Origin: Spirochaetota bacterium | GTDB lineage: Bacteria; Spirochaetota; UBA4802; UBA5550 | Reading direction: 5' to 3' | DNA length: 64,000 nucleotides | Assembly (NCBI GenBank): GCA_963663865.1 | Contig: OY760686.1 | Coordinates: 960,001 to 1,024,000, forward strand | Shown: piece after piece, positions 16,625 through 36,395 of the stretch | Numbering within the stretch: the stretch's first letter is position 1 | Layout: every line of letters starts with the position of its first letter | Program-made: the position numbers and the translations under genes | The notes under the pieces: generated by a model | Told to the model about the DNA's origin: nothing | Database searches by the model: none | Seen by the model: only the letters and a program-made list of their open reading frames with translations

Positions 16625-17239
16625 GGGCGGTTTGAAAAACTCAAGAATTAATTGCCAAAATGATTGGGCTAATTTAATGCTGTAATAATTAAATCTGAGT
16701 TTGAGCGAGAATAGACCATGTCAAAACACCGATCACTATTTGAATACGAAGAAAGGATGAATAAGCTGTCAGCGATAGGTGACCCCCTGGAAAAGTTGAA
16801 TGTATTTATTCCATGGGAAGAGATATTTTCTGGAGCTATGGCTAAGATAATTAAGTCAGCCGCCAAAGGTCCAGGCGGTCGTCCTGCGTATAGTTGTGAG
16901 ATGATGCTTAAAGTTCTTATTCTTCAACGTGTGTATAATCTGTCAGATGAGCAGGTTGAATTTCAGGTTAATGATCGTTTGTCATTTCAGAGATTTTTAG
17001 GCTTGGATATCAGTTCTTCCGTGCCAGACTACTCAACGATCTGGAAGTTTAGAGAAAAACTTGTTCACACAAATGCGATAGAAGAGATTTTTAGAAAGTT
17101 GATCAAATATATTGAGAAGCAGGGAATTGTGATGAAGAGCGGATCAATTGTTGACGCGACTTTTGTTGAGGTACCCCGGCAGAGGAATAGCCGTGAAGAC
17201 AACGAAAAGATAAAGAATGACGAGATACCATCTGACTGG
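16625..17239 (+). mobile_element. IS5-family element, 5' part only (transposase 16718-17242 truncated)
   Basis: GGRPAY...LILQRVYNLSDEQVE..VNDRLSFQRFLGL...VPDYSTIWKFRE and IVDAT motifs; likely left end GGGCGGTTTGAAAAACTC after TTAA; ORF cut exactly at the IS3 left end. Confidence 0.85.
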
Positions 17240-17309
17240 TGAACCTACCCCGAAAAAGTGGACACGAAGTTAGGCGAATTTAACGATAATAAACTTAACG
17301 GAGAAACCC

Positions 17310-17612
17310 ATGACTAACAGAAGAACGTATGATCGTCAATTCAAAATTGATGCAGTAAAATTACTGAAAGAGAGCGGCAAAACAGCTTCTGCGGTCGCCG
17401 ATAATCTGGGGATTAAATCTGATCTCTTGTCACGCTGGAAAAAGGAATTTGCCAATGAAACCAAAAAAGTTTTTCCAGGGAAAGGAAATCCGCGAGATGA
17501 AGAAATAACACGTTTGAAAAAAGAGAACGCAGATCTTCGTATGGAGCGTGATATATTAAAAAAAGCAATGGCCATCTTTTCACAACCCGAAAGGAGAAAT
17601 TCGAATTCATGA
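17310..17612 (+). CDS. IS3 transposase OrfA (HTH)
   Basis: RRTYDRQFKIDAVKL...VADNLGI...LSRWKK and LRMERDILKKAMAIF motifs. Confidence 0.92.
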   Translation: MTNRRTYDRQFKIDAVKLLKESGKTASAVADNLGIKSDLLSRWKKEFANETKKVFPGKGNPRDEEITRLKKENADLRMERDILKKAMAIFSQPERRNSNS

Positions 17613-18469
17613 AAAACAATGAATCGATTTATCCGGTGAAGAAGATGGCTGAAACATTTAGAATACCCAGAAGTCAATATTACAAATGGCTGAATTCAAA
17701 ACCTTGCTCTCGTGAGCTTCGAGATCAGGAATTACTTGTTATAATCAAAAAGAGTCATGAAGAAAGCAGAGAAACATACGGCAGCCCCAGGATCTTTAAA
17801 GATATTAAGAAGAAGTGAATCAAAACCTCAAAGAAACGAGTAGCTCGACTCATGCAAAGGAACGATCTTAAAGGTGCACAAAAACGCAAATTTAAGGTTA
17901 CTACCAATTCAGTTCATGAATATCCAGTGGCACCAAACCTTCTCAATAGGCAGTTTGATGTGCAGCAACCCAACACCTATTGGGTAAGCGATATCACCTA
18001 TATATGGACGATGGAAGGATGGCTGTATCTATCTGTTATAATTGACCTGTTCTCTCGAATGATTGTCGGATGGGCAATGGAGTCTCATATGCGGGCAGAG
18101 TTGGTAATTGATTCATTAAATATGGCTGTCACTCATCGCAATCCTGATGATGGATTAATATTCCATTCTGATCGGGGAACTCAATATGCCTGTGATGATT
18201 TTCGAACAGCACTTAAAGGATACGAGATGATTCAAAGCATGAGCCGGAAAGGTAACTGCTGGGACAATGCATGTGCTGAAAGCTTTTTTGCAACATTAAA
18301 GACTGAAGAAGTTTATCGTAGAAAATATAAAACCAGAGAGGAAGCAAGGTCTTACATATTTGAATATATAGCTGTTTTTTATAACAGAAAAAGACAGCAT
18401 TATTTTCTTGACTGTTTAAATCCTGTGGAATATGAAATAAATATGCTCAAACTTAAAAATGTTGTTTAA
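17609..18469 (+). pseudogene. IS3 transposase OrfB (DDE) with in-frame stop
   Basis: 17609-17818 and 17852-18469 are in the same frame, split by TGA at 17816-17818; WVSDITY, HSDRGTQY and DNACAESFF motifs present. Confidence 0.9.
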
Positions 18470-18499
18470 CTATCTGTCCTATAAATCGGGGGAGCTTCA

Positions 18500-19113
18500 T
18501 TTTTACACTGAGGGTGTGAGACCTTTTTTCGTTATTTTTTTTTCGATCCAAAAAGGGGTGTTGCCGAAGGCTTTTGCAAAGCTGTACTTTGCTATACTCA
18601 TTTTCACAGGGAGCCTGTGTGCATTTTCTGTTACTTTCTTTTTTCGATCCAAAAAAGAAAGTAACCAAAGAAAAAGGGATCTCCTGCGCGGAGGGCGATG
18701 GGACATCCATGTCCAAAGAATTAGTCACTGTGAATTAATCCATAGAGTGATAGCTTTATTATGTCAGGCGCCTTCGGAGCCGGAAGGCGCAGCATCCTGC
18801 TGCGCTTGAGTTATTATACATTTTGTCATATTACATAATCATATTGATTTAATCGTCATTAGGTTTCGCCACCCTGTAGAGCCGGCCAATTTGGACGGCT
18901 CTACCTCGCTACGCCCCCCCACCGCGGATGACAAGATGAGGAGAGCCGAAGGTCGGAACATTGGCGGCAGATTTCTTTTGACCACTTTTCTTGCTAAAAG
19001 AAAAGGAGTGAGGAAACTCTGACGAAAAGGCCTAAGCCCCCTCCTGGGCGGCTTAGGCACTAGTTCATCCTGAACGTCGGCGCCAGGGCGATTTGCTTCC
19101 ATGCAAATCGCAC
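18500..19113. repeat. Mosaic of diverged copies of the structured repeat and other palindromes
   Basis: TACACTGAGGGTGTG, CACAGGGAGCCTGTG, TTACTTTCTTTTT..AAAAAAGAAAGTAA, GTAGAGCCG..CGGCTCTAC (18876-18904) and GGCGCCAGGGCGATTTGCTTCCATGCAAATCGCAC. Several of these match motifs at 15.4 kb and 22.4-23.0 kb. Confidence 0.75.
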
Positions 19114-19208
19114 CTTTTCATCTTCTGTTTCGGAATCGGGTATTTTAGTAAAACGTACGGCATCGGGGAAAATTAAAAAAAATTGAATCAGATTAAAAAA
19201 AGTAAAAG

Positions 19209-19268
19209 AACGAAGGATAACGAATACATAACGAACATATAACGAAAATATAACGAACAAAAAACGAA
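19209..19268 (+). repeat. Helically phased array of six AACGAA cores
   Basis: AACGAA starts at 19209, 19219, 19230, 19241, 19252 and 19263. Confidence 0.85.
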
Positions 19269-19416
19269 GGGAAATAGGGCTGTTGAGGGGCTGAAACGCC
19301 CGGAAATGAGCTCTTCGAGCGAAAATCTGGCGGGGAAAGTACAACGTCAGCAATGAAGGGATAGGTTTTTGGGAAGGAGTGGGGTATGTTGCAGGGCGGA
19401 GTTTCTTTTTTTACAG

Positions 19417-19565
19417 GTGGCTTTATGTATCGAAGTTCAATATCTTTATACAAAGCCCATTTTAAAATTTTATCACTGATGTATTCAGGGGCATTATCGG
19501 AACGTATACTTCCAGGTTTTCCACGCAAGACTATGACATGCTCAAGAGATGTTAGTACCCGATGA
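19417..19565 (-). pseudogene. Internal remnant of a second IS3-family transposase
   Basis: Translates RVLTSLEHVIVLRGKPGSIRSDNAPEYISDKILKWALYKDIELRYIKP, resembling the integrase core of the IS407 group. Confidence 0.75.
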
Positions 19566-19772
19566 TAAAGTCATGGTGAGGAAACTGTGAAAACCTCAAT
19601 GAATTATTTAGCTTATCCGGCAGATATTCTAAAGCAATTTATACAACCAGCAATTAAACGAAATTTTTATGCAGTTTATTTTACTTTTTTCAGAATATTA
19701 ATGAATATAGTTTGATTTTTATATGTGTTACCTTCAACGATATTGGATGAAGTTTTTGTGCAGAGAAGGATA

Positions 19773-19779
19773 GTTAGGC
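19773..19779 (+). other. Integron recombination core site (GTTRRRY) starting cassette 1
   Basis: GTTAGGC; 19773-19793 is the reverse complement of 21327-21347 at 20 of 21 nt. Confidence 0.8.
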
Positions 19780-19820
19780 GCAATATTTCACATGCGACAT
19801 TATTGAAATAGAATAAAACG

Positions 19821-21323
19821 ATGAATACATTAGCATTTTTAAGAAATACATCTGGGAAAATAGATCCATTTCGATTTCCAGCAAAAATTGGGGAACTAGC
19901 CCAATTGCTTCTGCTTTATGATAATATTACTATTGTTACTGACAATTTAAACGAATTAACATGCATAATAGAATGGCTTGGAGAGGATGCATTCAATCGC
20001 TTATTACTAAACAAGACAATTAAAATAATATTGATCCCATGGGAATATGCTACTTTTAACCCAAACCAAGATAATAATTCTATTAACATAGGATTATACA
20101 AGCTATTATCAGAAAATATTGATTTAAATTTAGAAAATCTTAATGATAGAAATGAATATTTACATAAAATAATAATAAGAAATATTTTTCAATCTCCATC
20201 ATCCAGTATCTCACCAGATACAATTACAAATATTGCAAATAAATTAGATATTGTTCAATCATCTGATTTTTGTAAATTATTAAATAATAATTCTCATCAA
20301 ATGTTTACTTGGCTCTTCAGCATGAAAGAAACAAGCGACATTCAAGAATATTTTGATCATAATTTTCTATTAACTAAAGCAACTAATTATAGTTCATTTA
20401 ATTCATTGGAAATTAATGAAGAAATTATTACAGAAATTGAATATGACTATATAAAAAAATATTTATCTGGAGATTTAAATAATTTATTATATACTGTAAG
20501 GGAAATATCTATTGCATCATATCTTGATATTGGACATATCAATATATCTGATTTTACACCTTTATTAATGCAAAACATGGTTCATGACAATAAATCAGAT
20601 GTTATATCTCCATTTTTCAATAATATTTTAAATGTTCATGAATTCCCTTTGATTCATGCAGGTATATATAATAAAAGCATTAGTGCTGAAAATGTTTTAG
20701 CAATTAGAAATTCAAAATCTGGTGTCAATTTTAGAAAATGGCTAAGTGAATGTTCATCAACAAATAAAAATCCTGATCAATTAATATCAGAATATGTAAA
20801 ATCAATAACAGACCAAATACCGAAGGAATCTACTAAATTTTCAGTATTTAAACTACTGTCATTAGCATTATTAGGTATTGTCGATTCGGGTTCTGGTTTA
20901 GTACTTTCAATTGCTGATGTATTTCACACAAAAATTAAAAATACTTGGTCCCCAATATTATTTATAAGGGATGATTATGGTAAATTTCTTAATCAAACTT
21001 CATATGACTATCCATCTATACCGATAGATATTTTATTCTTATTGAATTGTGGATTAAGAATATGCAGTTTTGAATATCATGAAGATAATACTAAAATTGA
21101 ATTGTTCAGAGATACTAAAGATAATTTATTCAATATTACTTATGGTAAAAGTAAAGAGGAAATATCGATCTTAAAATCAACTATTCATGAAATTATTGAA
21201 TTGTCTCCTGGAGTAGAATTTTATTTTTATTGTCCATCATGTAACAGTAAAAATCAAATTAAATCCTTAGGAAAACAAACACAAAATATTCGGTGTGGTT
21301 ATTGTAAAAATAAAATTGTGTAA
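19821..21323 (+). CDS. Integron cassette 1: 500-aa hypothetical protein with C-terminal Zn-ribbon
   Basis: Very AT-rich; bounded by GTTAGGC and attC; ends CPSC-x17-CGYC. Confidence 0.85.
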   Translation: MNTLAFLRNTSGKIDPFRFPAKIGELAQLLLLYDNITIVTDNLNELTCIIEWLGEDAFNRLLLNKTIKIILIPWEYATFNPNQDNNSINIGLYKLLSENIDLNLENLNDRNEYLHKIIIRNIFQSPSSSISPDTITNIANKLDIVQSSDFCKLLNNNSHQMFTWLFSMKETSDIQEYFDHNFLLTKATNYSSFNSLEINEEIITEIEYDYIKKYLSGDLNNLLYTVREISIASYLDIGHINISDFTPLLMQNMVHDNKSDVISPFFNNILNVHEFPLIHAGIYNKSISAENVLAIRNSKSGVNFRKWLSECSSTNKNPDQLISEYVKSITDQIPKESTKFSVFKLLSLALLGIVDSGSGLVLSIADVFHTKIKNTWSPILFIRDDYGKFLNQTSYDYPSIPIDILFLLNCGLRICSFEYHEDNTKIELFRDTKDNLFNITYGKSKEEISILKSTIHEIIELSPGVEFYFYCPSCNSKNQIKSLGKQTQNIRCGYCKNKIV

Positions 21324-21340
21324 AAAATGTGAAATACTGC

Positions 21341-21443
21341 GCCTAACAAAGCATATAAGCTGCGTCGCTTCGCTCCTTGGCCTGCGGCACATTTTGCCTT
21401 CATTTCATTACGGCAAAACGTCTTATATGCTTGGACGTTAAGT
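21341..21443 (+). mobile_element. Integron attC site 1
   Basis: R'' GCCTAAC, L'' AAGCATATAAG, L' CTTATATGCTT, R' GTTAAGT; 103 bp, just after the stop codon. Confidence 0.9.
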
Positions 21444-21485
21444 GGCATTGCGAGTTAGTTATCTATTTATTAGGAGTTTGTTATA

Positions 21486-22163
21486 ATGAATACAACTCAA
21501 ATAATTATTGAATTCATTAAAACTATATTTTCTGCGGCAACACTAATTATTGCCATATATGGAATAAATACATGGCGCAAACAGTTGAAAGGCACAAATG
21601 AATTTGAACTCTCAAAGGAAATATTGGAAAATGTTTATAAAGTAAAAAGAGCTTTTGCTTATGTAAGAAACCCTGGAATTTATAAATCTGAATATCCAAA
21701 GGAACTCCAAGATAAATTAACTTTAAATATTGAACAAAAAGCTTATGCAACACAGTACTATTATAGTAAACGATTAGAAATACTTCATAATGAGTTTGAA
21801 AAACTTGAAAATTCATTTTTAAAAGGAATTGTATTGTTTAATATAACTGATGAGATTATTATGCCTTTACGGAAATGCAGAGCATCATTAATAGTTGCAT
21901 TGCAAGATCTTTACGAGTTTACTAAGAATCCTGAATATACAACTTCCGAAAGAAAACATGATGTTTATAAAATCATATATGATAATTTAAGCTTAAATGA
22001 AGATGATAAAGATCAGTTCTCAAAATATATAATAGAAGCAGTTGATTTGATGATTCATTGGTTAAAGCCGATGTTGTTAAAGTCAAAAATCAATAATAAA
22101 GAATTTCAAAATATTCTTAGGAGAACAAGAAGCTTTGAAATTATAATTCACAACGACGTATAA
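21486..22163 (+). CDS. Integron cassette 2: single N-terminal TM hypothetical protein
   Basis: TAGGAG RBS; TM segment followed by WRKQLKG; the stop codon TAA lies within R'' of attC2. Confidence 0.85.
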   Translation: MNTTQIIIEFIKTIFSAATLIIAIYGINTWRKQLKGTNEFELSKEILENVYKVKRAFAYVRNPGIYKSEYPKELQDKLTLNIEQKAYATQYYYSKRLEILHNEFEKLENSFLKGIVLFNITDEIIMPLRKCRASLIVALQDLYEFTKNPEYTTSERKHDVYKIIYDNLSLNEDDKDQFSKYIIEAVDLMIHWLKPMLLKSKINNKEFQNILRRTRSFEIIIHNDV

Positions 22164-26741: not shown

Positions 26742-27963
26742 TGTGTATCTCCTTCAGTACAGTTCCGTCGATATGCCGGATAGACCAGAGAGCCTCCAGA
26801 GCGGATAGCTCGTTTTCGTGGAATGCCCGCAGCAATTCAAATTCCTGCCGGTGGCTTTCTATCGCGAGCGACGGCGGTATCAGGCCTCTTTGCATGAGCT
26901 GGTGAAGACGTTTGTGCCCGTCTCTGCCGGAATAGGGGAAGGGCAGAGTCCGAGTTGAGTTTATTAAGCTGCTGTAACGCGAAACGGACGATTCTCTTGA
27001 CAGTTTCAGCGTCATCATAAGTGTCTCTTTTTTTATACGCGCCAGTCTGACTCCGGCCTCGGCTTCGGTGCGCTGGCCCTGATTCTGATTGAAAAGGGGC
27101 AATTCGATTGAGAGTGACAGCCCGGCGCTGAAATCGGTTTTGCCGTCCGCGCTATTGTGCCCAACTGACGGGCCAATGGCCAGATCGGGCCAGACGTATG
27201 AATCTGCTATCCGCTTTTCACTGAGTCCGATTTCAATTTTCCGCTCAGCGAGAAGCAGGACGGGACTTTCGGAAATATTAAAGGCTTCCAATTCGGGCCA
27301 CTGGCGCACAGGCACCGGGTAGAGTTCGCTGAGATCAGCGGCTGACATGCCGGCTGCTGAGAGAACTCTCTCTTCGAGTCCCGCGAGCTCTGCCTCAAGC
27401 TGGGCAACGCGGAGAAGGGCGTCCTCGCCGGCTTTATGGTAAATATCACGGCTGATTTCAAGCTCGGGATTCAGCCGGGGCATCCTTGAGTAAAGCGAGA
27501 CCATTCTGCTATATGTCGCGGCGCTTTCCTTAAGAACTTCAATCTCTGCCGAGCGCTGACGCATGCGGTACAGGTCGAGCAAGACCTTCCGCGCGATATC
27601 CTGTTTCCTGATTTCCAGAGAAAGCTCAAAGGCAGCCGATATCTTTCCGGCATGGCTTTTGCGTGCTTCGCGCTTTCCGCCTGTTTCAAGCTGATGCCTG
27701 ATTGAGTATTCTCCGGATATTCCGCCTCCGGAAACGACGCCGAGGACGCGGGAATCAAGTTCGGGATTGGGCATCTGGTTCGCCGATATCTCTCTGGCTC
27801 TGAGGACTTCTGCCCGGGCAGTCATGTCCTTTATTTCAGGGTGGCTTGAAATAACAGCATCAAGCAGGTCGGCTACTCTGAGTAACCGGTCTTGTTCTGC
27901 CGCGCTTGATGCAGCTGGAAGCGCGAACAGCAAGAGCAGCAGTATATTGGCATGTCTGTGCAT
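26725..27963 (-). CDS. TolC-family outer membrane factor (CzcC-like)
   Basis: Signal peptide; PNPEL..., LETGGKREAR and AGLSLSIELPLFNQNQG motifs. Confidence 0.9.
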   Translation of the reverse strand: MHRHANILLLLLFALPAASSAAEQDRLLRVADLLDAVISSHPEIKDMTARAEVLRAREISANQMPNPELDSRVLGVVSGGGISGEYSIRHQLETGGKREARKSHAGKISAAFELSLEIRKQDIARKVLLDLYRMRQRSAEIEVLKESAATYSRMVSLYSRMPRLNPELEISRDIYHKAGEDALLRVAQLEAELAGLEERVLSAAGMSAADLSELYPVPVRQWPELEAFNISESPVLLLAERKIEIGLSEKRIADSYVWPDLAIGPSVGHNSADGKTDFSAGLSLSIELPLFNQNQGQRTEAEAGVRLARIKKETLMMTLKLSRESSVSRYSSLINSTRTLPFPYSGRDGHKRLHQLMQRGLIPPSLAIESHRQEFELLRAFHENELSALEALWSIRHIDGTVLKEIHNEYSK

Positions 27964-28007
27964 GGCATTGCTCCTTAAGTGTCGTTTAATGTGTTTGAAT
28001 GAAGCTT

Positions 28008-28406
28008 TTAAGAGTAAAGGAGCTGCGCAGGGGGGGCCCTGCCTGCAAGTTCGAGGCAGAAACGGGCTGTCTGAGGTTTGATGTTATGAAGAGGAAATCC
28101 TGTTCTGTCGGGGAATGCAGTGATTGAAAGACAGCTGCACTGTATTTGCTGCGTATCAAATTTTTTTAAAGGGACGTCTTTTTTTTCGATCAGGGCAGTG
28201 TCTTTGAGCGCATGTTGAAGGGGAAGTTCAAAGCAGAATCCTGAACCGCAGCAAGTGTCCCTGTCTTCCGCCTGACTGCAGTCCCGGTCCGACCATTCAT
28301 AATCAGATCCATGATGATGAATGTGCACGCCTGCGGCGCCTGCCGCGGCAAAGACGGCAAAGAGCGCGAGAAGCACGGATGATATTAGATTTGCTGATTT
28401 TCTCAT
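28008..28406 (-). CDS. His/Cys-rich exported leader protein with C-terminal RAPP motif (CzcI/DUF2946-like)
   Basis: Signal/TM segment, HIHHH, C..CC..C, and C-terminal LAGRAPPAQLLYS; first gene of the efflux operon. Confidence 0.7.
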   Translation of the reverse strand: MRKSANLISSVLLALFAVFAAAGAAGVHIHHHGSDYEWSDRDCSQAEDRDTCCGSGFCFELPLQHALKDTALIEKKDVPLKKFDTQQIQCSCLSITAFPDRTGFPLHNIKPQTARFCLELAGRAPPAQLLYS

Positions 28407-28588: not shown

Positions 28589-30031
28589 ATGCCATATAAA
28601 AATCTGTCGGATTTTATTCAAAAACTTGAGGAGATGGGGGAGCTCAAACGGATTACTGCGGCCGTAGACCCTTACCTTGAGATAACGGAGATAGCGGACC
28701 GCACGGTCAAGAAAGGAGGGCCGGCCCTTCTTTTTCTGAATGTCAGGGGATCGGAATATCCTCTGTTGATAAACGCCTTCGGGAGCCCGCGCAGAATGCA
28801 GGCGGCATTGGGTTGCGAGTCGTTTGATGAGATCGCGCTTAGAATTGAGACGCTCCTCAAACTTCAGCCGCCCTCAGGGCTTATGGAAAAGCTCAGGGTA
28901 ATGTTGACACTCAAGGACGTTGCTTCGTATTTGCCGGTAACTGTTAAAAGCGCCCCCTGTCACGACAGTGTCATAACCCAAGGCCCGTTTCTTGACAGGC
29001 TGCCCATTCAGACCTGCTGGCCCGGAGACGGCGGGCCGTTTATAACGCTGCCCCTTGTCTTCACGAGGGACCCTGAGACCGGGGTACAGAACATGGGCAT
29101 GTACCGAATGCACAGGTATTCTGACAGCGAAACAGGCATGCACTGGCAGTACAACAAGGACGGGTCACGCCACTTCAGAAAGTATAAAGAACTGGGTAAA
29201 AGGATGCCGGTATCCGTCGCGCTCGGAGGCGTTCCTTCGGTGACATACAGCGCGACCGCGCCGCTGCCGCCTGACATCCCTGAGCTGCTCTTTGCCGGTT
29301 TCCTTGAGGGAAGAGGGATAAAGCAGGTAAGATGTGTGACGAATGACCTGCTTGTGCCGGCTGAATCTGACTTCGTTATTGAGGGCTATGTTGACCCGGC
29401 AGAGGAGAGAATCGAGGGGCCTTTTGGAGACCACACAGGCTTTTATTCCCCGGCTGATATATATCCTGTATTTCATGTCACGTGTATTACTGCGAGAAGG
29501 GACGCGGTTTACCCGTCAACGGTTGTCGGAAAACCGCCGATGGAGGACTGCTTTATGGCCAAGGCGACGGAGAGGATTTTTCTTCCCGTGCTTAAGATGA
29601 TACTTCCCGAGATACATGATATAGAGCTGCCGATAGAAGGGGTCTTCCATAACTGCGCGCTGATATCCATAAAAAAATCTTACTCCGGGCAGGCGAGAAA
29701 AGCCATTCACGCGCTGTGGGGACTCGGGCAGATGGCTTCAACAAAAATGATCGCGGTATTCGAGGATGATGTCGACCTCAGGGACGGGAGCACCGTGCTC
29801 TGGAAGCTTCTCAACAACGTAGATCCAAGACGCGATGTTATCATAACCGAGGGCCCTCTTGACGCACTGGACCATTCAGCCCCTTATTTCAACTATGGCG
29901 GGAAGGTCGGTATTGACGCGACCAGGAAGACGAGAGAGGAGGGCATGGGACGCGAGTGGCCTGATGAGATATCAATGAGCGATGAGATACGGGCCCTGGT
30001 TGACGGGAGGTGGGATGAATACGGTATTTAG
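28589..30031 (+). CDS. ubiD: UbiD-family (menaquinone/futalosine-type) decarboxylase
   Basis: DPYLEITEIADR, GPALLF, QNMGMYR, EGPFGDHTG and DALDHS..GGKVGIDAT motifs. Confidence 0.92.
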   Translation: MPYKNLSDFIQKLEEMGELKRITAAVDPYLEITEIADRTVKKGGPALLFLNVRGSEYPLLINAFGSPRRMQAALGCESFDEIALRIETLLKLQPPSGLMEKLRVMLTLKDVASYLPVTVKSAPCHDSVITQGPFLDRLPIQTCWPGDGGPFITLPLVFTRDPETGVQNMGMYRMHRYSDSETGMHWQYNKDGSRHFRKYKELGKRMPVSVALGGVPSVTYSATAPLPPDIPELLFAGFLEGRGIKQVRCVTNDLLVPAESDFVIEGYVDPAEERIEGPFGDHTGFYSPADIYPVFHVTCITARRDAVYPSTVVGKPPMEDCFMAKATERIFLPVLKMILPEIHDIELPIEGVFHNCALISIKKSYSGQARKAIHALWGLGQMASTKMIAVFEDDVDLRDGSTVLWKLLNNVDPRRDVIITEGPLDALDHSAPYFNYGGKVGIDATRKTREEGMGREWPDEISMSDEIRALVDGRWDEYGI

Positions 30032-30851
30032 GAAGTTTTCCGAGCTTATCATGATTGAACAGACGATCTTTGCCCTGCCATTCGCCTACACGGGCATTCT
30101 CTTTGCGGGAGGCGCGCCTCTCAGAGTGTGGGTGCTTGTTACCCTCGCGCTTTTTGGAGCCAGGACGGCGGGCATGTCGTTCAACAGGGTCCTTGACGCG
30201 GATATCGACGCCCGAAACCCGAGGACCAGCGACAGGCACATTCCCGCGGGGAAGGTGACCCGCTTCCAGGCCTGGGCCCTCGGCGCCGCCGCCTCCTCTC
30301 TTCTGGTGCTGTCCGCCTGGATGCTCAATCCCCTGTGTTTCGTTCTTTCGTTTCCCGCAGCGGCGATGCTTCTGACATATTCACTGTTCAAGCGTTTCAG
30401 TTCAGCCTCTCACTTCTATCTCGGTCTGGTGGAGGCGGCGGCGCCGATAGGGGGCTATCTCGCGGTGAAGGGCTCATTCGATCTTACTCCCTTCTTCCCC
30501 GGAGCGGCAATCATGTTCTGGATTGCCGGATTTGATATTCTCTACGCGCTCGCCGACGAGGAGTTTGACCGCAGAGAAGGCCTTCACTCCGTACCTGCGG
30601 CGCTTGGACGAAAAGGGGCGCTTGCCGTATCAGCGGCCTGCCATGCCGTATCAGTTGCGGCGCTGATGCTCGGCGGGCTGTATCTCAAGGCCTCTCCGGT
30701 ATATTACGCGGCAGCGGCAGCCGTTGCAGCTGTTTTCGTTCTACAGCACTACAGGACCCGAAGGAAAAGCGGAGATGAACGGGCGATCTTTAGGCTAAAC
30801 CGCCTTGTCGGGCCGCTGATTTTTGCGGGAGCCGCGGCTTCCTCATTGTAG
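30015..30851 (+). CDS. UbiA-family prenyltransferase (MqnP-like)
   Basis: EQTIFALPFAY, NRVLDADIDARNPRT..RHIP and GFDILYAL.DEEFDR motifs; start moved to the ATG at 30015 after GGGAGG. Confidence 0.9.
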   Translation: MNTVFRKFSELIMIEQTIFALPFAYTGILFAGGAPLRVWVLVTLALFGARTAGMSFNRVLDADIDARNPRTSDRHIPAGKVTRFQAWALGAAASSLLVLSAWMLNPLCFVLSFPAAAMLLTYSLFKRFSSASHFYLGLVEAAAPIGGYLAVKGSFDLTPFFPGAAIMFWIAGFDILYALADEEFDRREGLHSVPAALGRKGALAVSAACHAVSVAALMLGGLYLKASPVYYAAAAAVAAVFVLQHYRTRRKSGDERAIFRLNRLVGPLIFAGAAASSL

Positions 30852-31116: not shown

Positions 31117-32859
31117 ATGAAAGATGGTCTGAGCAGGGATTTGTCGCTCATTCAGAAGTCGCTTGACCTTGAGAACCCGCTATTGCGTTACTATATCAAG
31201 AAACACAGGCTGGGAAAAGAGGACATTGTCGTTCTGGGAGTTCTTCTGGAAATGACCGGCCAGATGAAGAGCGATGTGCGCACACATTACAACATCATCG
31301 CCGAGCAGACCGGGCTCTCCGCGCTTGAGGCCTATCATTCCGTAAATTCTCTTCACCGCAACAGAATCATCGACTCTAAGCCTGTAGGGAATTTCGTACA
31401 CATTTCATTCCGTGAGATTGAAGAGAAGATTGACGAGCTTGAGCTCGCTGCTCGCAATGCGCGAAAGATAAAGCGCATAGAGGCAGAGCTTGAGTACATG
31501 CGTTCGAGAAATTATGTGCCGGGTGCCGAGCTTGAGGACATTATCACTCCGGTTCTCGGAAGAATTATCACCCGCAAAATAGCCGAAGCGCTTTCAGCCA
31601 TAATAAACTACATTAACGCCCGAATTAATAACACCATCAGCTTCCAGATGTGGAGGTGTCGATGGCAGTCAATCCGCACGGGTGTTCCACTTGGGGATAT
31701 AGTGTTCAGAAATTCGCTGCCCTACCTCATTCAGGAGGTGCTGCTTGTCGAGAAGAAGTCATCCATGCTTGTAGCTCACACCGCAAGAGAAGCCGGCCCG
31801 GAGACGGACCGTGATGTTGCCGCGGCGCTGCTTTCCGCAGTAACCGACTACATCCGGACTTCCTTCAGGAAGGACGACGCTGTGCTGAACTCAATCTCGT
31901 TCGGAGATTCAAGCATTATCGTTATTGAGGGAAGAAACGTTTTCGCCGCCTTCGTCGTATATGGGACTCCGGCTTCGGCGTTCTATGAGGACGCGGAGGC
32001 CCTTCTCTCCGCTGTGCATAAGCAATTCGGCCAGAAGATTGCGAGGTTCAGGGGTTCCATGAAGGGACTTGAGGGCCTTCCTTCACTTCTGGCGGAATTC
32101 ATTATAAGGGCAAATCCTATGCCCGATGACGGCGCTGAAAAGGTCTCTTACCGGAACTTGAAGATTGCCGGAGCTCTGGCGGCAGTCCTGGGGATGTGGC
32201 TTGTCGTCAGCGCTGTAATCGGCGCCGTTGCGGATTACCGGATTGAGAAGAGTGCCTATTCAGCCCTTGCGCGGTCGATGCCTCCTTTCAGCTACGATCT
32301 TGAACTGGAAGCCGATGACGGAACAGTTGCCGTGACCGGTACAGTGAGTTCTCCGGCATCAGCTGAAAAGGCGTCAAAGATTTTGTCAGGGGTAGAGTCT
32401 GTAAAGGATGTTGAGAATCGGGCGGTAATCGCTGATTACAGGGCCGCAGAGAAATTCCGGACTGATATTTCCGGTTTCAGTGAGAGAATGGCCGTTTTCG
32501 AGCTTCAGTTCGTCAGAAAAGAGCTTGAAGGAATCGTAATTCAGTTCCAGCCTGGTAATACCGGGCTCGGGGACAATCAGCTTATGCAGGTAAGACGGGC
32601 TTATGAGATTATACGGCATTATCCTCACATATTCATTGAGGTTGTCGCTTTCAACGATCCTGCGGGCGGCTTTGAGCTTAACAGAAGATTGGCAGAGGAG
32701 AGGATGAAGGCTGTAAGAAACTATCTTGTCAATGCCGGCCATCCATCCGGAAAAATAAAAACACTGCCCTTTAATCCAGACATAATATCGGCGGATCCCG
32801 AATACGAGCGGTTCAGGGACGCGAGGGGAATAATGCTCTTTGCGAGGAGTTCAGACTGA
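31117..32859 (+). CDS. Membrane protein: N-terminal wHTH-like, roadblock/longin-like cytoplasmic domain, TM, BON, OmpA-C-like
   Basis: IQEVLLVEKKSSMLVAH..DVAAALLSAVTDYIRTSF; one TM; GTVAVTGTV..VESVKDVEN (BON); FND..G..LNRRLAEERMKAVRNYL (OmpA-C). Confidence 0.75.
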   Translation: MKDGLSRDLSLIQKSLDLENPLLRYYIKKHRLGKEDIVVLGVLLEMTGQMKSDVRTHYNIIAEQTGLSALEAYHSVNSLHRNRIIDSKPVGNFVHISFREIEEKIDELELAARNARKIKRIEAELEYMRSRNYVPGAELEDIITPVLGRIITRKIAEALSAIINYINARINNTISFQMWRCRWQSIRTGVPLGDIVFRNSLPYLIQEVLLVEKKSSMLVAHTAREAGPETDRDVAAALLSAVTDYIRTSFRKDDAVLNSISFGDSSIIVIEGRNVFAAFVVYGTPASAFYEDAEALLSAVHKQFGQKIARFRGSMKGLEGLPSLLAEFIIRANPMPDDGAEKVSYRNLKIAGALAAVLGMWLVVSAVIGAVADYRIEKSAYSALARSMPPFSYDLELEADDGTVAVTGTVSSPASAEKASKILSGVESVKDVENRAVIADYRAAEKFRTDISGFSERMAVFELQFVRKELEGIVIQFQPGNTGLGDNQLMQVRRAYEIIRHYPHIFIEVVAFNDPAGGFELNRRLAEERMKAVRNYLVNAGHPSGKIKTLPFNPDIISADPEYERFRDARGIMLFARSSD

Positions 32860-32887
32860 AGGCGGGACATTTTACAGAGGAGACTGT

Positions 32888-33421
32888 ATGGCACCTGAAT
32901 ACAAGTTCAAGATGGTAATGCTTGGCGATTTTGCTGTGGGAAAGACCAGCATAATTAGAAGGTTTGTCTTTGATGAATTCGGCGATACGTATCTTACGAC
33001 GATCGGGGTAAAAGTGACAAGAAAGGAAGCCGTTTTGAAAAATGGTGCAGGCGCTGACCTTTTGCTATGGGATATCGCGGGAAGCGACAGGTTTAACGAG
33101 GTGTCTCCTGAGTACGTCAAAGGTGCTTCAGCCGGCATAATTGTCGCCGATGTAACCCGCCCCTCAACAATAGACAGCATACAGACCCATGCCGAAATGA
33201 TAGGGAAGAATAACCCGGAAGCCGTGATTGCCGTGGCGCTCAATAAGTCCGATCTTTCTCATGACACTAATTCAGTAATGAAAACCGCCAGGGACATCAT
33301 AGACAAACTCGGCCTCAACTGGTATCCTTCGACTGTCGCCACAAGCGCAAAGACAGGGAAAAATGTCAATGAGCTGCTCATAAGCCTCGCGGAAGCGGCA
33401 GCAGAGTTCGGAGACAGATGA
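32888..33421 (+). CDS. Ras-superfamily (Rab-like) small GTPase
   Basis: G1 GDFAVGKT, G2 YLTTIGV, G3 WDIAG, G4 NKSD, G5 TSAK; start at the ATG at 32888 after GAGGAG. Confidence 0.93.
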   Translation: MAPEYKFKMVMLGDFAVGKTSIIRRFVFDEFGDTYLTTIGVKVTRKEAVLKNGAGADLLLWDIAGSDRFNEVSPEYVKGASAGIIVADVTRPSTIDSIQTHAEMIGKNNPEAVIAVALNKSDLSHDTNSVMKTARDIIDKLGLNWYPSTVATSAKTGKNVNELLISLAEAAAEFGDR

Positions 33422-36179: not shown

Positions 36180-36395
36180 AATCAGCCTCCGTTGCGGTCT
36201 TGAGACGATTATTGAAAAGAGCTCCATCCTGACAAATGTTTTTTAGGGGCAGTAAATCAATATGCTAAAAATCGTTCAGACAGTAAAGTCCGGCCGGGCT
36301 TAAAAAAAATCGCTCTGAAGGTAATTTCATCCGTTAACCCTTTGCCTGAGTAAAGGCCTCCCATGACAGGGGGAAATATCAGACGGAGGATAAAC

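Follow-up and report, generated by a model that had tools for sequence, protein, structure and literature searches.

Why should an operon for heavy-metal efflux begin with a short reading frame whose product carries histidine and cysteine clusters and ends in a putative ribosome-arrest motif? We have studied this question in a stretch of 64,000 nucleotides from a Spirochaetota bacterium (assembly GCA_963663865.1, contig OY760686.1, positions 960,001 to 1,024,000 of the forward strand), referred to below as the window. The reading frame, which we call the leader, is the first of a four-gene unit on the minus strand, and is followed by genes for an outer-membrane factor, a short His-rich protein and a CzcA-type pump. 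A preliminary description of the sequence had proposed that a ribosome stalled at the C-terminal Arg-Ala-Pro-Pro (RAPP) of the leader uncovers the ribosome binding site (RBS) of the next gene. The analysis presented here leads us to conclude that the leader is probably an arrest peptide of the CutF-like class, exported while it is being made and acting in cis to gate the translation of the czcCBA-type pump.

The leader is an upstream open reading frame (uORF) at 28406-28008 (all features of the operon are on the minus strand), encoding 132 amino acids with a CutF-like architecture. Its HIHHH motif, Cys clusters and terminal RAPP had been noted before, and both coordinates and residues were confirmed. 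The N-terminal segment (amino acids 1-26, 28406-28329) has a basic start followed by a hydrophobic core, with an 11-residue hydropathy maximum of 3.0. This agrees with the signal sequence claimed in the preliminary description, which we call from hydropathy alone and describe as a putative export signal or membrane anchor. The sequence G-V-H-I-H-H-H (amino acids 26-32, 28331-28311) lies right behind the hydrophobic segment, and provides putative periplasmic metal ligands. Cleavage at a putative site after Ala25 would give a mature N-terminus Gly-Val-His, which we take to be the Xaa-Xaa-His pattern of an amino-terminal Cu/Ni-binding (ATCUN) site. In total the leader has His at positions 28, 30, 31, 32, 65 and 107, and seven Cys at 43, 52, 53, 58, 90, 92 and 117. 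The cluster formed by C43, C52, C53, C58 and H65 (28280-28212) is located 60-82 residues ahead of the stall site, and for this reason is plausibly in the periplasm while the ribosome is stalled. The putative arrest motif RAPP occupies amino acids 123-126 (28040-28029), and by analogy with the toeprints of CruR, ApdA and ApdP the P-site proline is predicted to be that encoded by 28034-28032. Among the 366 stop-to-stop reading frames of at least 60 amino acids in the window, the leader is alone in having R[AG]PP within its last 15 residues.

The last proline codon ends at 28029, and 5 nt further on begins the sequence GCUCCUU (28023-28017). This is the exact complement of AAGGAGC (27976-27970), the outer-membrane factor gene's Shine-Dalgarno (SD) sequence, which is placed 7 nt ahead of the ATG at 27963. 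The arrangement is just as it had been described. The anti-SD sequence can be extended by 3 bp (28026-28024), such that the whole element at 28026-28017 runs from +9 to +18 relative to the P-site codon, with a calculated duplex free energy of −13.4 kcal/mol. The SD:anti-SD helix was predicted in all eight of the folding windows used, with a pair probability of 0.81-1.0, and the local fold has z = −1.9, with nine of 200 shuffled sequences folding equally well. The helix closes a 40-nt, A/C-rich, unstructured loop (28016-27977, containing 10 C and 2 G) that may serve for 30S standby or for the loading of Rho. Of all the leader and coding-sequence windows tested at the locus, the anti-SD is the best partner for the SD. 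We are confident that the leader is truly regulatory and that its helix functions in sequestering the SD.

Could a stalled ribosome open the helix? With the first proline of the PP in the P-site the anti-SD core is located at +12 to +18, and the edge of the ribosome is at about +15 to +17. When the bases up to +12 were forced to be unpaired the probability of the helix fell to 0.13, and when this was extended to +13 it fell to 0.01. The proposal that a stalled ribosome frees the RBS fits the geometry and the predicted loss of the helix on blocking to +12 or +13, but its predicted effect is reduced by incomplete coverage and by backup pairings. There are two of these. The first is a weak, 5-nt SD complement just 3′ of the leader stop codon (28005-28001), which emerges once the main anti-SD is blocked in the constrained fold. 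The second, in the Leu codons of the TolC signal peptide (27938-27932), has a duplex free energy of −9.7 kcal/mol and captures the SD in constrained folds that reach at least 40 nt beyond the start codon. With the 3′ end at +13 the gain in the free energy of RBS opening is 2.9 kcal/mol; the predicted gain is modest because the freed SD re-pairs with one or other of these sequences. We consider it likely that stalling at RAPP opens the SD helix.

The preliminary description had itself named conservation of the pairing as a test of its proposal. We therefore assembled a panel of 80 genome loci by CzcA similarity, independently of the presence of any leader; these are the best 80 of 337. One is 50% identical to the CzcA of the window and the remaining 79 are 36-43% identical, so that the panel represents the wider CzcA family and not close orthologues. 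A tblastn search of plasmids using TolC gave no match. Ten loci are cut by contig ends, leaving 70 with upstream DNA. A leader was called as a same-strand reading frame of 96-165 amino acids whose N-terminus is hydrophobic and whose final 15 residues include PP. By this definition 56 of the 70 loci have a leader right before the first efflux gene, and they span Bdellovibrio, alpha-, beta- and gammaproteobacteria, a planctomycete and Bacteroidota. Nearly all 56 leaders are enriched in His and Cys. The motif G-x-H-x-H is found at the same position in five of them (L004, L018, L032, L044 and L068), and the column of H31 is invariant in alignment A3. A Pfam scan assigned 16 of the 56 to DUF6660, found no match for 39, and placed none above the DUF2946 cut-off (one was sub-threshold).

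We then asked what precedes the pump where a leader is absent. Fourteen of the loci with upstream DNA have no leader. In seven of them (L020, L022, L043, L051, L059, L073 and L080) a gene for an extracytoplasmic function (ECF) sigma factor lies directly upstream, adjoining the pump, and five of these seven are CnrH-like and accompanied by a CnrX-type gene. As half of the leaderless loci thus carry an ECF sigma factor, this suggests that control by a leader and control by an ECF sigma factor are for the most part alternatives. Regulators of the transcription of metal genes were found beside the leader in two of 26 leader loci scanned, these being a divergent MerR (L001) and a member of the Fur family (L015); one or two of the longest upstream reading frames were scanned in each locus, so that small regulators could escape.

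Conservation of the pairing was examined in 35 loci, comprising 34 non-Bacteroidota loci and the window. The 21 Bacteroidota loci in which czcA comes first, a duplicate (L037) and the 24 loci without a leader call (the ten cut by contig ends and 14 with other upstream genes) were dropped from these counts. Start codons were chosen by a rule that weights SD strength, with one manual change (L010), and we placed the stall at the last PP, an uncertain choice for sphingomonad leaders with two PP motifs; the operon's first gene may have been miscalled in L016 and L021. The distance from the first proline to the downstream start is 65-85 nt in 27 of the 35 loci, and 71 nt in the window. The segment from +7 to +22 pairs with the SD region of its own locus with a mean of −10.3 kcal/mol, compared with −7.1 kcal/mol for the SD regions of other loci and −6.3 kcal/mol for windows further upstream in the same leader. 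In 30 of 35 cases a segment pairs more strongly with its own SD region than the cross-locus mean, a result equalled in none of 20,000 permutations. A sliding profile of the pairing has its peak at an offset of +10 (−8.7, compared with −4.4 to −7.0 elsewhere). Taking one locus from each of 12 lineages and excluding the window, the median p was 0.002, the lowest value that 500 permutations allow; for three control segments p was 0.08-0.46. In ensemble folds the SD core is paired within +7 to +18 in 18 of the 34 other loci, using different sequences in six lineages; these are ten sphingomonads, three of hyphomonad type, two Burkholderiales, a Cellvibrio, a Methylophilus and a member of the Micropepsaceae. 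Modeling a ribosome up to +15 lowered the cost of opening the RBS by at least 2 kcal/mol in 27 of the 35 loci, and in 23 of the 35 when 60 nt of downstream mRNA was included.

By this test the pairing is conserved across unrelated lineages with different sequences. The cross-lineage peak extends from +10 to +19, and the window anti-SD at +12 to +18 coincides with it. Since the register is conserved, the window anti-SD sits where a conserved one would be expected.

Two groups within the panel show variations. The leaders of the 21 Bacteroidota loci (for example L023, L031 and L066), 16 of which belong to DUF6660, end in WQPP or FQPP and precede czcA, which is often fused to TolC. Here the gaps are 82-304 nt and no SD was detected at the starts, so that control by these leaders must differ from SD unmasking. 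Seven sphingomonad leaders (L033, L035, L040, L047, L048, L050 and L056) end in two PP motifs (APPxxPP), and it is the second PP with which their anti-SD is in register.

A number of observations weigh against a stall-gated SD helix, and should be considered together. The stalled ribosome would cover only about four of the seven anti-SD bases, together with the 3-bp extension, and the calculated cost of opening the RBS drops by just 0.2-4.2 kcal/mol, depending on the length of downstream mRNA that is folded. A perfect complement of at least 7 nt to the RBS region occurs within 100 nt upstream in six of 35 window genes; when the peptide following RAPP was recoded with synonymous codons, 6.5% of 20,000 draws gave the same 7-mer. 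Taken by itself the 7-mer is therefore modest evidence, and it acquires significance only through the comparative data. Within those data, 16 of the 34 other loci lack pairing within +7 to +18, including that of Bdellovibrio (L001), the closest to the window among the best 80 of 337, where the modeled ribosome changes nothing. An exact RAPP is present in just four of the 56 other leaders, most of which end in xRPP, xQPP or xEPP. Homology in sequence between the window leader and the others was sought and not established, with a best E of 0.046 using hidden Markov models built from the panel leaders and an hhalign probability of 7%, in an alignment confined to the GVHIHHH segment. Lastly, the Pro motif of CutF gave no stall by itself in a LepB fusion, as reported in a passage of PMC9973294.

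To which class does the leader belong? No Pfam or NCBIfam family was found above cut-off. Membership of DUF2946 was considered and rejected, as there is no match to PF11162 at E values up to 1, no CXXC, and no Cys near residue 77, where the 45-residue spacing to RAPP of that family would place it; the terminal RAPP does agree. CxxxC is also absent. The leader matches neither the Pfam model for DUF6769 (PF20558) nor that for DUF6660, these being the Bacteroidota families of which DUF6660 accounts for the 16 panel leaders above; its look-alikes in the ESM Atlas are DUF6769 clusters (score 0.96, 156-161 shared features), which we treat as a lead only. A direct homologue search with 140 candidates gave a single close homologue (P0001, 89% identical), in which RAPP, the His cluster, C43, C52, C53, C58, C90 and H65 are kept, and C92 and C117 are not.

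In size, terminal PP and neighboring gene the leader conforms to the architecture of CutF-like proteins, which passages of Ozturk et al. 2023 (PMC9973294) define by size, terminal PP, signal peptide and same-strand neighbor; its basic N-terminus and hydrophobic core make it a candidate for the signal peptide. Its 132 amino acids are below the limit of 150, P125-P126 of 132 fall within 15 residues of the C-terminus, and the gene for the outer-membrane efflux protein is 44 nt beyond the leader; an SD-sequestering helix within reach of the stalled ribosome is predicted computationally. According to the same passages CusC/CzcC/SilC-type outer-membrane factors are the most frequent downstream neighbors of CutF-like genes, and in the cutFOG operon of Rhodobacter capsulatus CutF and an anti-SD stem-loop control cutO. 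Copper-induced stalling of CutF melts the stem-loop, as described in part of a later preprint (bioRxiv 10.1101/2025.02.05.636593). The leader shares with CutF a small, predicted exported uORF with Cys/His ligands, a C-terminal PP, a short intergenic region and an anti-SD helix over the SD of the next gene, and a stall that opens the helix and induces a detoxification gene is predicted for it. It differs in having no CxxxC, in ending in RAPP in place of the PPP of CutF, in its target (a CzcA-type divalent pump where CutF controls a multicopper oxidase), in the location of its anti-SD within the end of the coding sequence, closing an unstructured 40-nt loop, and in having no detectable homology to a named family. 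Judged from its sequence, the leader would function like CutF and fits that architectural class, with no homology to a named family shown. Stall-dependent unmasking had been offered in the preliminary description as an inference of its own. The model is supported by our data, yet it is the published CutF mechanism, in the commonest gene context of CutF-like proteins.

Other arrest peptides provide further comparisons. In Bordetella pertussis CruR represses an importer via Rho once copper relieves the stall (Roy et al. 2022, in the parts of PMC9426467 concerned with this). Passages of Fujiwara et al. 2025 (PMC12992588) state that CruR arrests at RAPP in vitro and that RAPP supports arrest in varied contexts. 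Like CruR, the leader has a C-terminal RAPP a few residues from the stop codon, a predicted export signal, the first position in a metal operon and a C>G bubble; unlike CruR and DUF2946 proteins it lacks CXXC, the 45-residue spacing and a match to PF11162, and its gap is 44 nt rather than 162 nt. In RAPP stalls the third and fourth residues are in the P- and A-sites, with toeprints 15-17 nt past the first P-site base (passages of PMC12992588; PMC7897499). The RAPP/RGPP uORF catalogue, as quoted in part from PMC12992588, contains 530 uORFs before TolC-family genes (5.5-fold over AAPP, adjusted p 7e-136), 620 before RND adaptors and 50 before CusA/CzcA. The leader resembles the uORFs described in those passages in being shorter than 300 amino acids, secretory (by prediction) and having RAPP near its C-terminus. 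Its C-terminal end was not found among the entries listed there, which does not establish its absence from the full catalogue. The words "efflux", "TolC" and "stem-loop" occur zero times in the main text of that paper, and efflux targets and anti-SD geometry are not discussed in the passages drawn on here. ApdA, ApdP and SecM (PMC7897499) resemble the leader in a RAPP-like arrest, Pro occupying the P- and A-sites, and in SecM-type SD unmasking, both predicted for the leader; those peptides regulate Sec components in response to secretion, whereas the leader precedes a metal pump and has His/Cys clusters. In the literature covered, where subscription journals are thinly represented, we found neither a report of a fixed anti-SD register nor any experiment on such a leader in front of an RND pump.

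How might the leader work? In the free mRNA the anti-SD in the last leader codons is predicted to pair with the SD of the czcC/tolC gene, and initiation would be low. A ribosome reaching RAPP would pause with the first proline in the P-site, as do the RAPP peptides that have been tested, and its entry channel would then fill the region from +12 to about +15 and break the helix. The longer the ribosome dwells, the more pump should be made. Metal bound by the exported His/Cys segment probably prolongs the stall, as for CutF, and judging from the type of pump the inducing metal is more likely to be divalent (Zn, Co, Cd or Ni) than Cu(I). Rho-dependent polarity on the C-rich stretch may perhaps sharpen the off state. 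That binding of metal by the nascent chain is the signal, and that it induces the pump, seems to us the better supposition on balance, held with less assurance than the opening of the helix by the stall.

An alternative, in the manner of CruR, is that Rho-dependent termination in the C-rich end of the leader and the intergenic loop is what the stall chiefly controls, with the anti-SD being secondary and metal either lengthening or relieving the stall. The C>G bubble at about 27940-28240, which includes the 40-nt loop, is above 99.5% of window positions; by C-G skew (uncorrected for codon content) 27 of the 56 leader ends rank in the top decile of their loci, and cruR-bfrG, which has a similar bubble, is Rho-controlled, according to a part of PMC9426467. 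However, the skew may merely reflect Pro, His, Ser and Thr codons, the intergenic gap is far from the 162 nt of cruR-bfrG, and the conserved register of SD pairing points to control of initiation. Moreover, a metal that relieved the stall would lower the expression of an efflux pump, a response of the wrong sign. We consider control centered on Rho to be unlikely. Nor do we favor constitutive coupling or secretion monitoring, in which any ribosome that translates the leader, pauses on it or terminates on it would open the helix, RAPP would fix a basal level or signal Sec activity in the way of ApdA/ApdP, and metal would act via a transcription factor encoded elsewhere. The location of the anti-SD inside the last leader codons does mean that a terminating ribosome covers it too, two of the seven Cys are lost in the 89% homologue, and the MerR and Fur-family genes in L001 and L015 show that transcription factors can stand beside such leaders. 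Against this, nearly all of the 56 leaders are enriched in His/Cys, the regulated genes are metal pumps and not components of Sec, and CutF and CruR both need their Cys motif for the metal response (passages of 10.1101/2025.02.05.636593 and PMC9426467). Taken together, these points make coupling in the absence of metal sensing quite improbable. The same two loci bear on another argument. The preliminary description had remarked that no metal-responsive transcription factor lies nearby, and by Pfam none was found in 45 longer window reading frames or in 40 shorter ones between 14 and 42 kb (leaving aside three short reading frames inside operon genes). As an argument for the mechanism this is weak, and we have rejected it, given a MerR and a Fur-family gene beside the leaders of L001 and L015.

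The exported protein might instead be the functional unit, binding metal in the periplasm and acting in trans to quench or assist the pump, with RAPP and the helix being incidental. CzcI of Cupriavidus metallidurans, encoded directly before czcC, is reported in passages of PMC10127602 to quench CzcCBA activity, and the leader, small and by prediction periplasmic, is alike in gene position, size and His/Cys content. Yet across the panel it is the PP end and the fixed-distance SD pairing that are conserved, and not the mature sequence. RAPP is strongly avoided in proteomes (part of PMC12992588), and CzcI is described as having no C-terminal Pro motif in the relevant passage of PMC9973294. A role of this kind as the sole function is very improbable, and a trans role and cis-acting arrest are not exclusive. 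Least probable of all is that the anti-SD is a chance outcome of the Gln-Leu-Leu codons. The frequency of the 7-mer under synonymous recoding, the long complements in six of 35 window genes, and the origin of the second SD complement in Leu codons of the tolC signal peptide all show how readily such sequences arise; but the position of the anti-SD matches the cross-lineage peak, and it is the best SD partner among the windows tested at the locus. Thus the reading that we prefer remains that of a CutF-like arrest peptide gating the pump.

Transcription of the operon might begin at a candidate sigma-70 promoter (28460-28427), called by consensus match alone. It has two overlapping consensus-like readings, one a promoter-scan match at 28460-28432 (9/12) and the other, read off the sequence, with TTGACA (28455-28450) and TACGGT (28432-28427) separated by a 17-nt spacer. 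The candidate promoter leaves a 5′ untranslated region of about 14 nt, and the leader ATG (28406) has no canonical SD core. For these reasons the leader may be weakly translated, as reported for cruR. No intrinsic terminator was found between the leader and tolC, the lone match being on the opposite strand within tolC.

The regulated gene (27963-26725) encodes a TolC/CzcC-like outer-membrane efflux protein of 412 amino acids (PF02321, E 1.5e-12) with 956 relatives in the representative library. It is followed at 26741-26172, in the place of the membrane-fusion protein CzcB, by a gene for a short His-rich probable lipoprotein of 189 amino acids with no Pfam match. In its top ESM Atlas cluster 78% of members have CzcB_C, and its counterpart in the Bdellovibrio locus (L001 5487-5987) has 166 amino acids and 24% identity. 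The protein resembles the C-terminal domain of CzcB only, and is too short for a normal membrane-fusion protein. The last gene (26151-23023) encodes the CzcA-type heavy-metal RND pump of 1042 amino acids. It scores 1071 bits against TIGR00914 (cut-off 701), which upholds the earlier assignment as a Czc-type pump, and among solved structures it is closer to ZneA (556 bits) than to CusA (498 bits). In both the window and L001 pumps an Asp follows just after the DFGxxxDG segment in transmembrane helix 4 (at about amino acids 401-416), where ZneA and CusA have Glu. This position is presumably part of the proton relay.

Other genes surround the operon. Divergent from the leader, and sharing with it a 182-nt intergenic region, are genes for an MqnD-associated UbiD-family menaquinone decarboxylase (TIGR03701) and a UbiA/MqnP-like prenyltransferase (28589-30851, plus strand). 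Further along the same strand lie a BON/OmpA-domain protein, a small Ras/Roc-like GTPase and an HD-domain gene (31117-33421), and a reading frame of 1439 amino acids with no Pfam match at E 1e-4 (36363-40682). Beyond the pump, the region 16718-22163 (plus strand) contains transposase and integrase pieces (DUF772, HTH_Tnp_1 and rve), and two AT-rich-looking orphan genes (19821-21323 and 21486-22163) without a Pfam match above cut-off. It is a probable mobile island.

The leader class, the mechanism and the link to CzcC/TolC are already published, and the locus is a clear further example rather than a new mechanism. The new element is modest, namely that in the czc operons of several lineages the anti-SD stands behind the stall site in a fixed register. 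This supports the idea that the CutF mechanism, described for one copper oxidase, extends to divalent-metal pumps, whose control is usually said to be transcriptional. We tentatively suggest, as a possibility that falls a little short of an even chance, that unmasking of the SD by a stall, in a fixed register (+10 to +18 relative to the stalled proline, and about 75 nt to the czcC start), is a widespread default control of divalent-metal CzcCBA pumps in several phyla, largely alternative to control by CnrYXH-type ECF sigma factors, with leaders that are sequence-unrelated His/Cys nascent-chain sensors reading periplasmic Zn, Co, Cd or Ni, and not Cu. The window locus, with its exact RAPP, simple 7-10 bp helix and C-rich loop, might combine translational and Rho control, and would be a clean test case. 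If the suggestion is true, translation is the level at which many czc operons detect metal in the periplasm, and it would become possible to test directly for a nascent-chain sensor of zinc, cobalt or cadmium.

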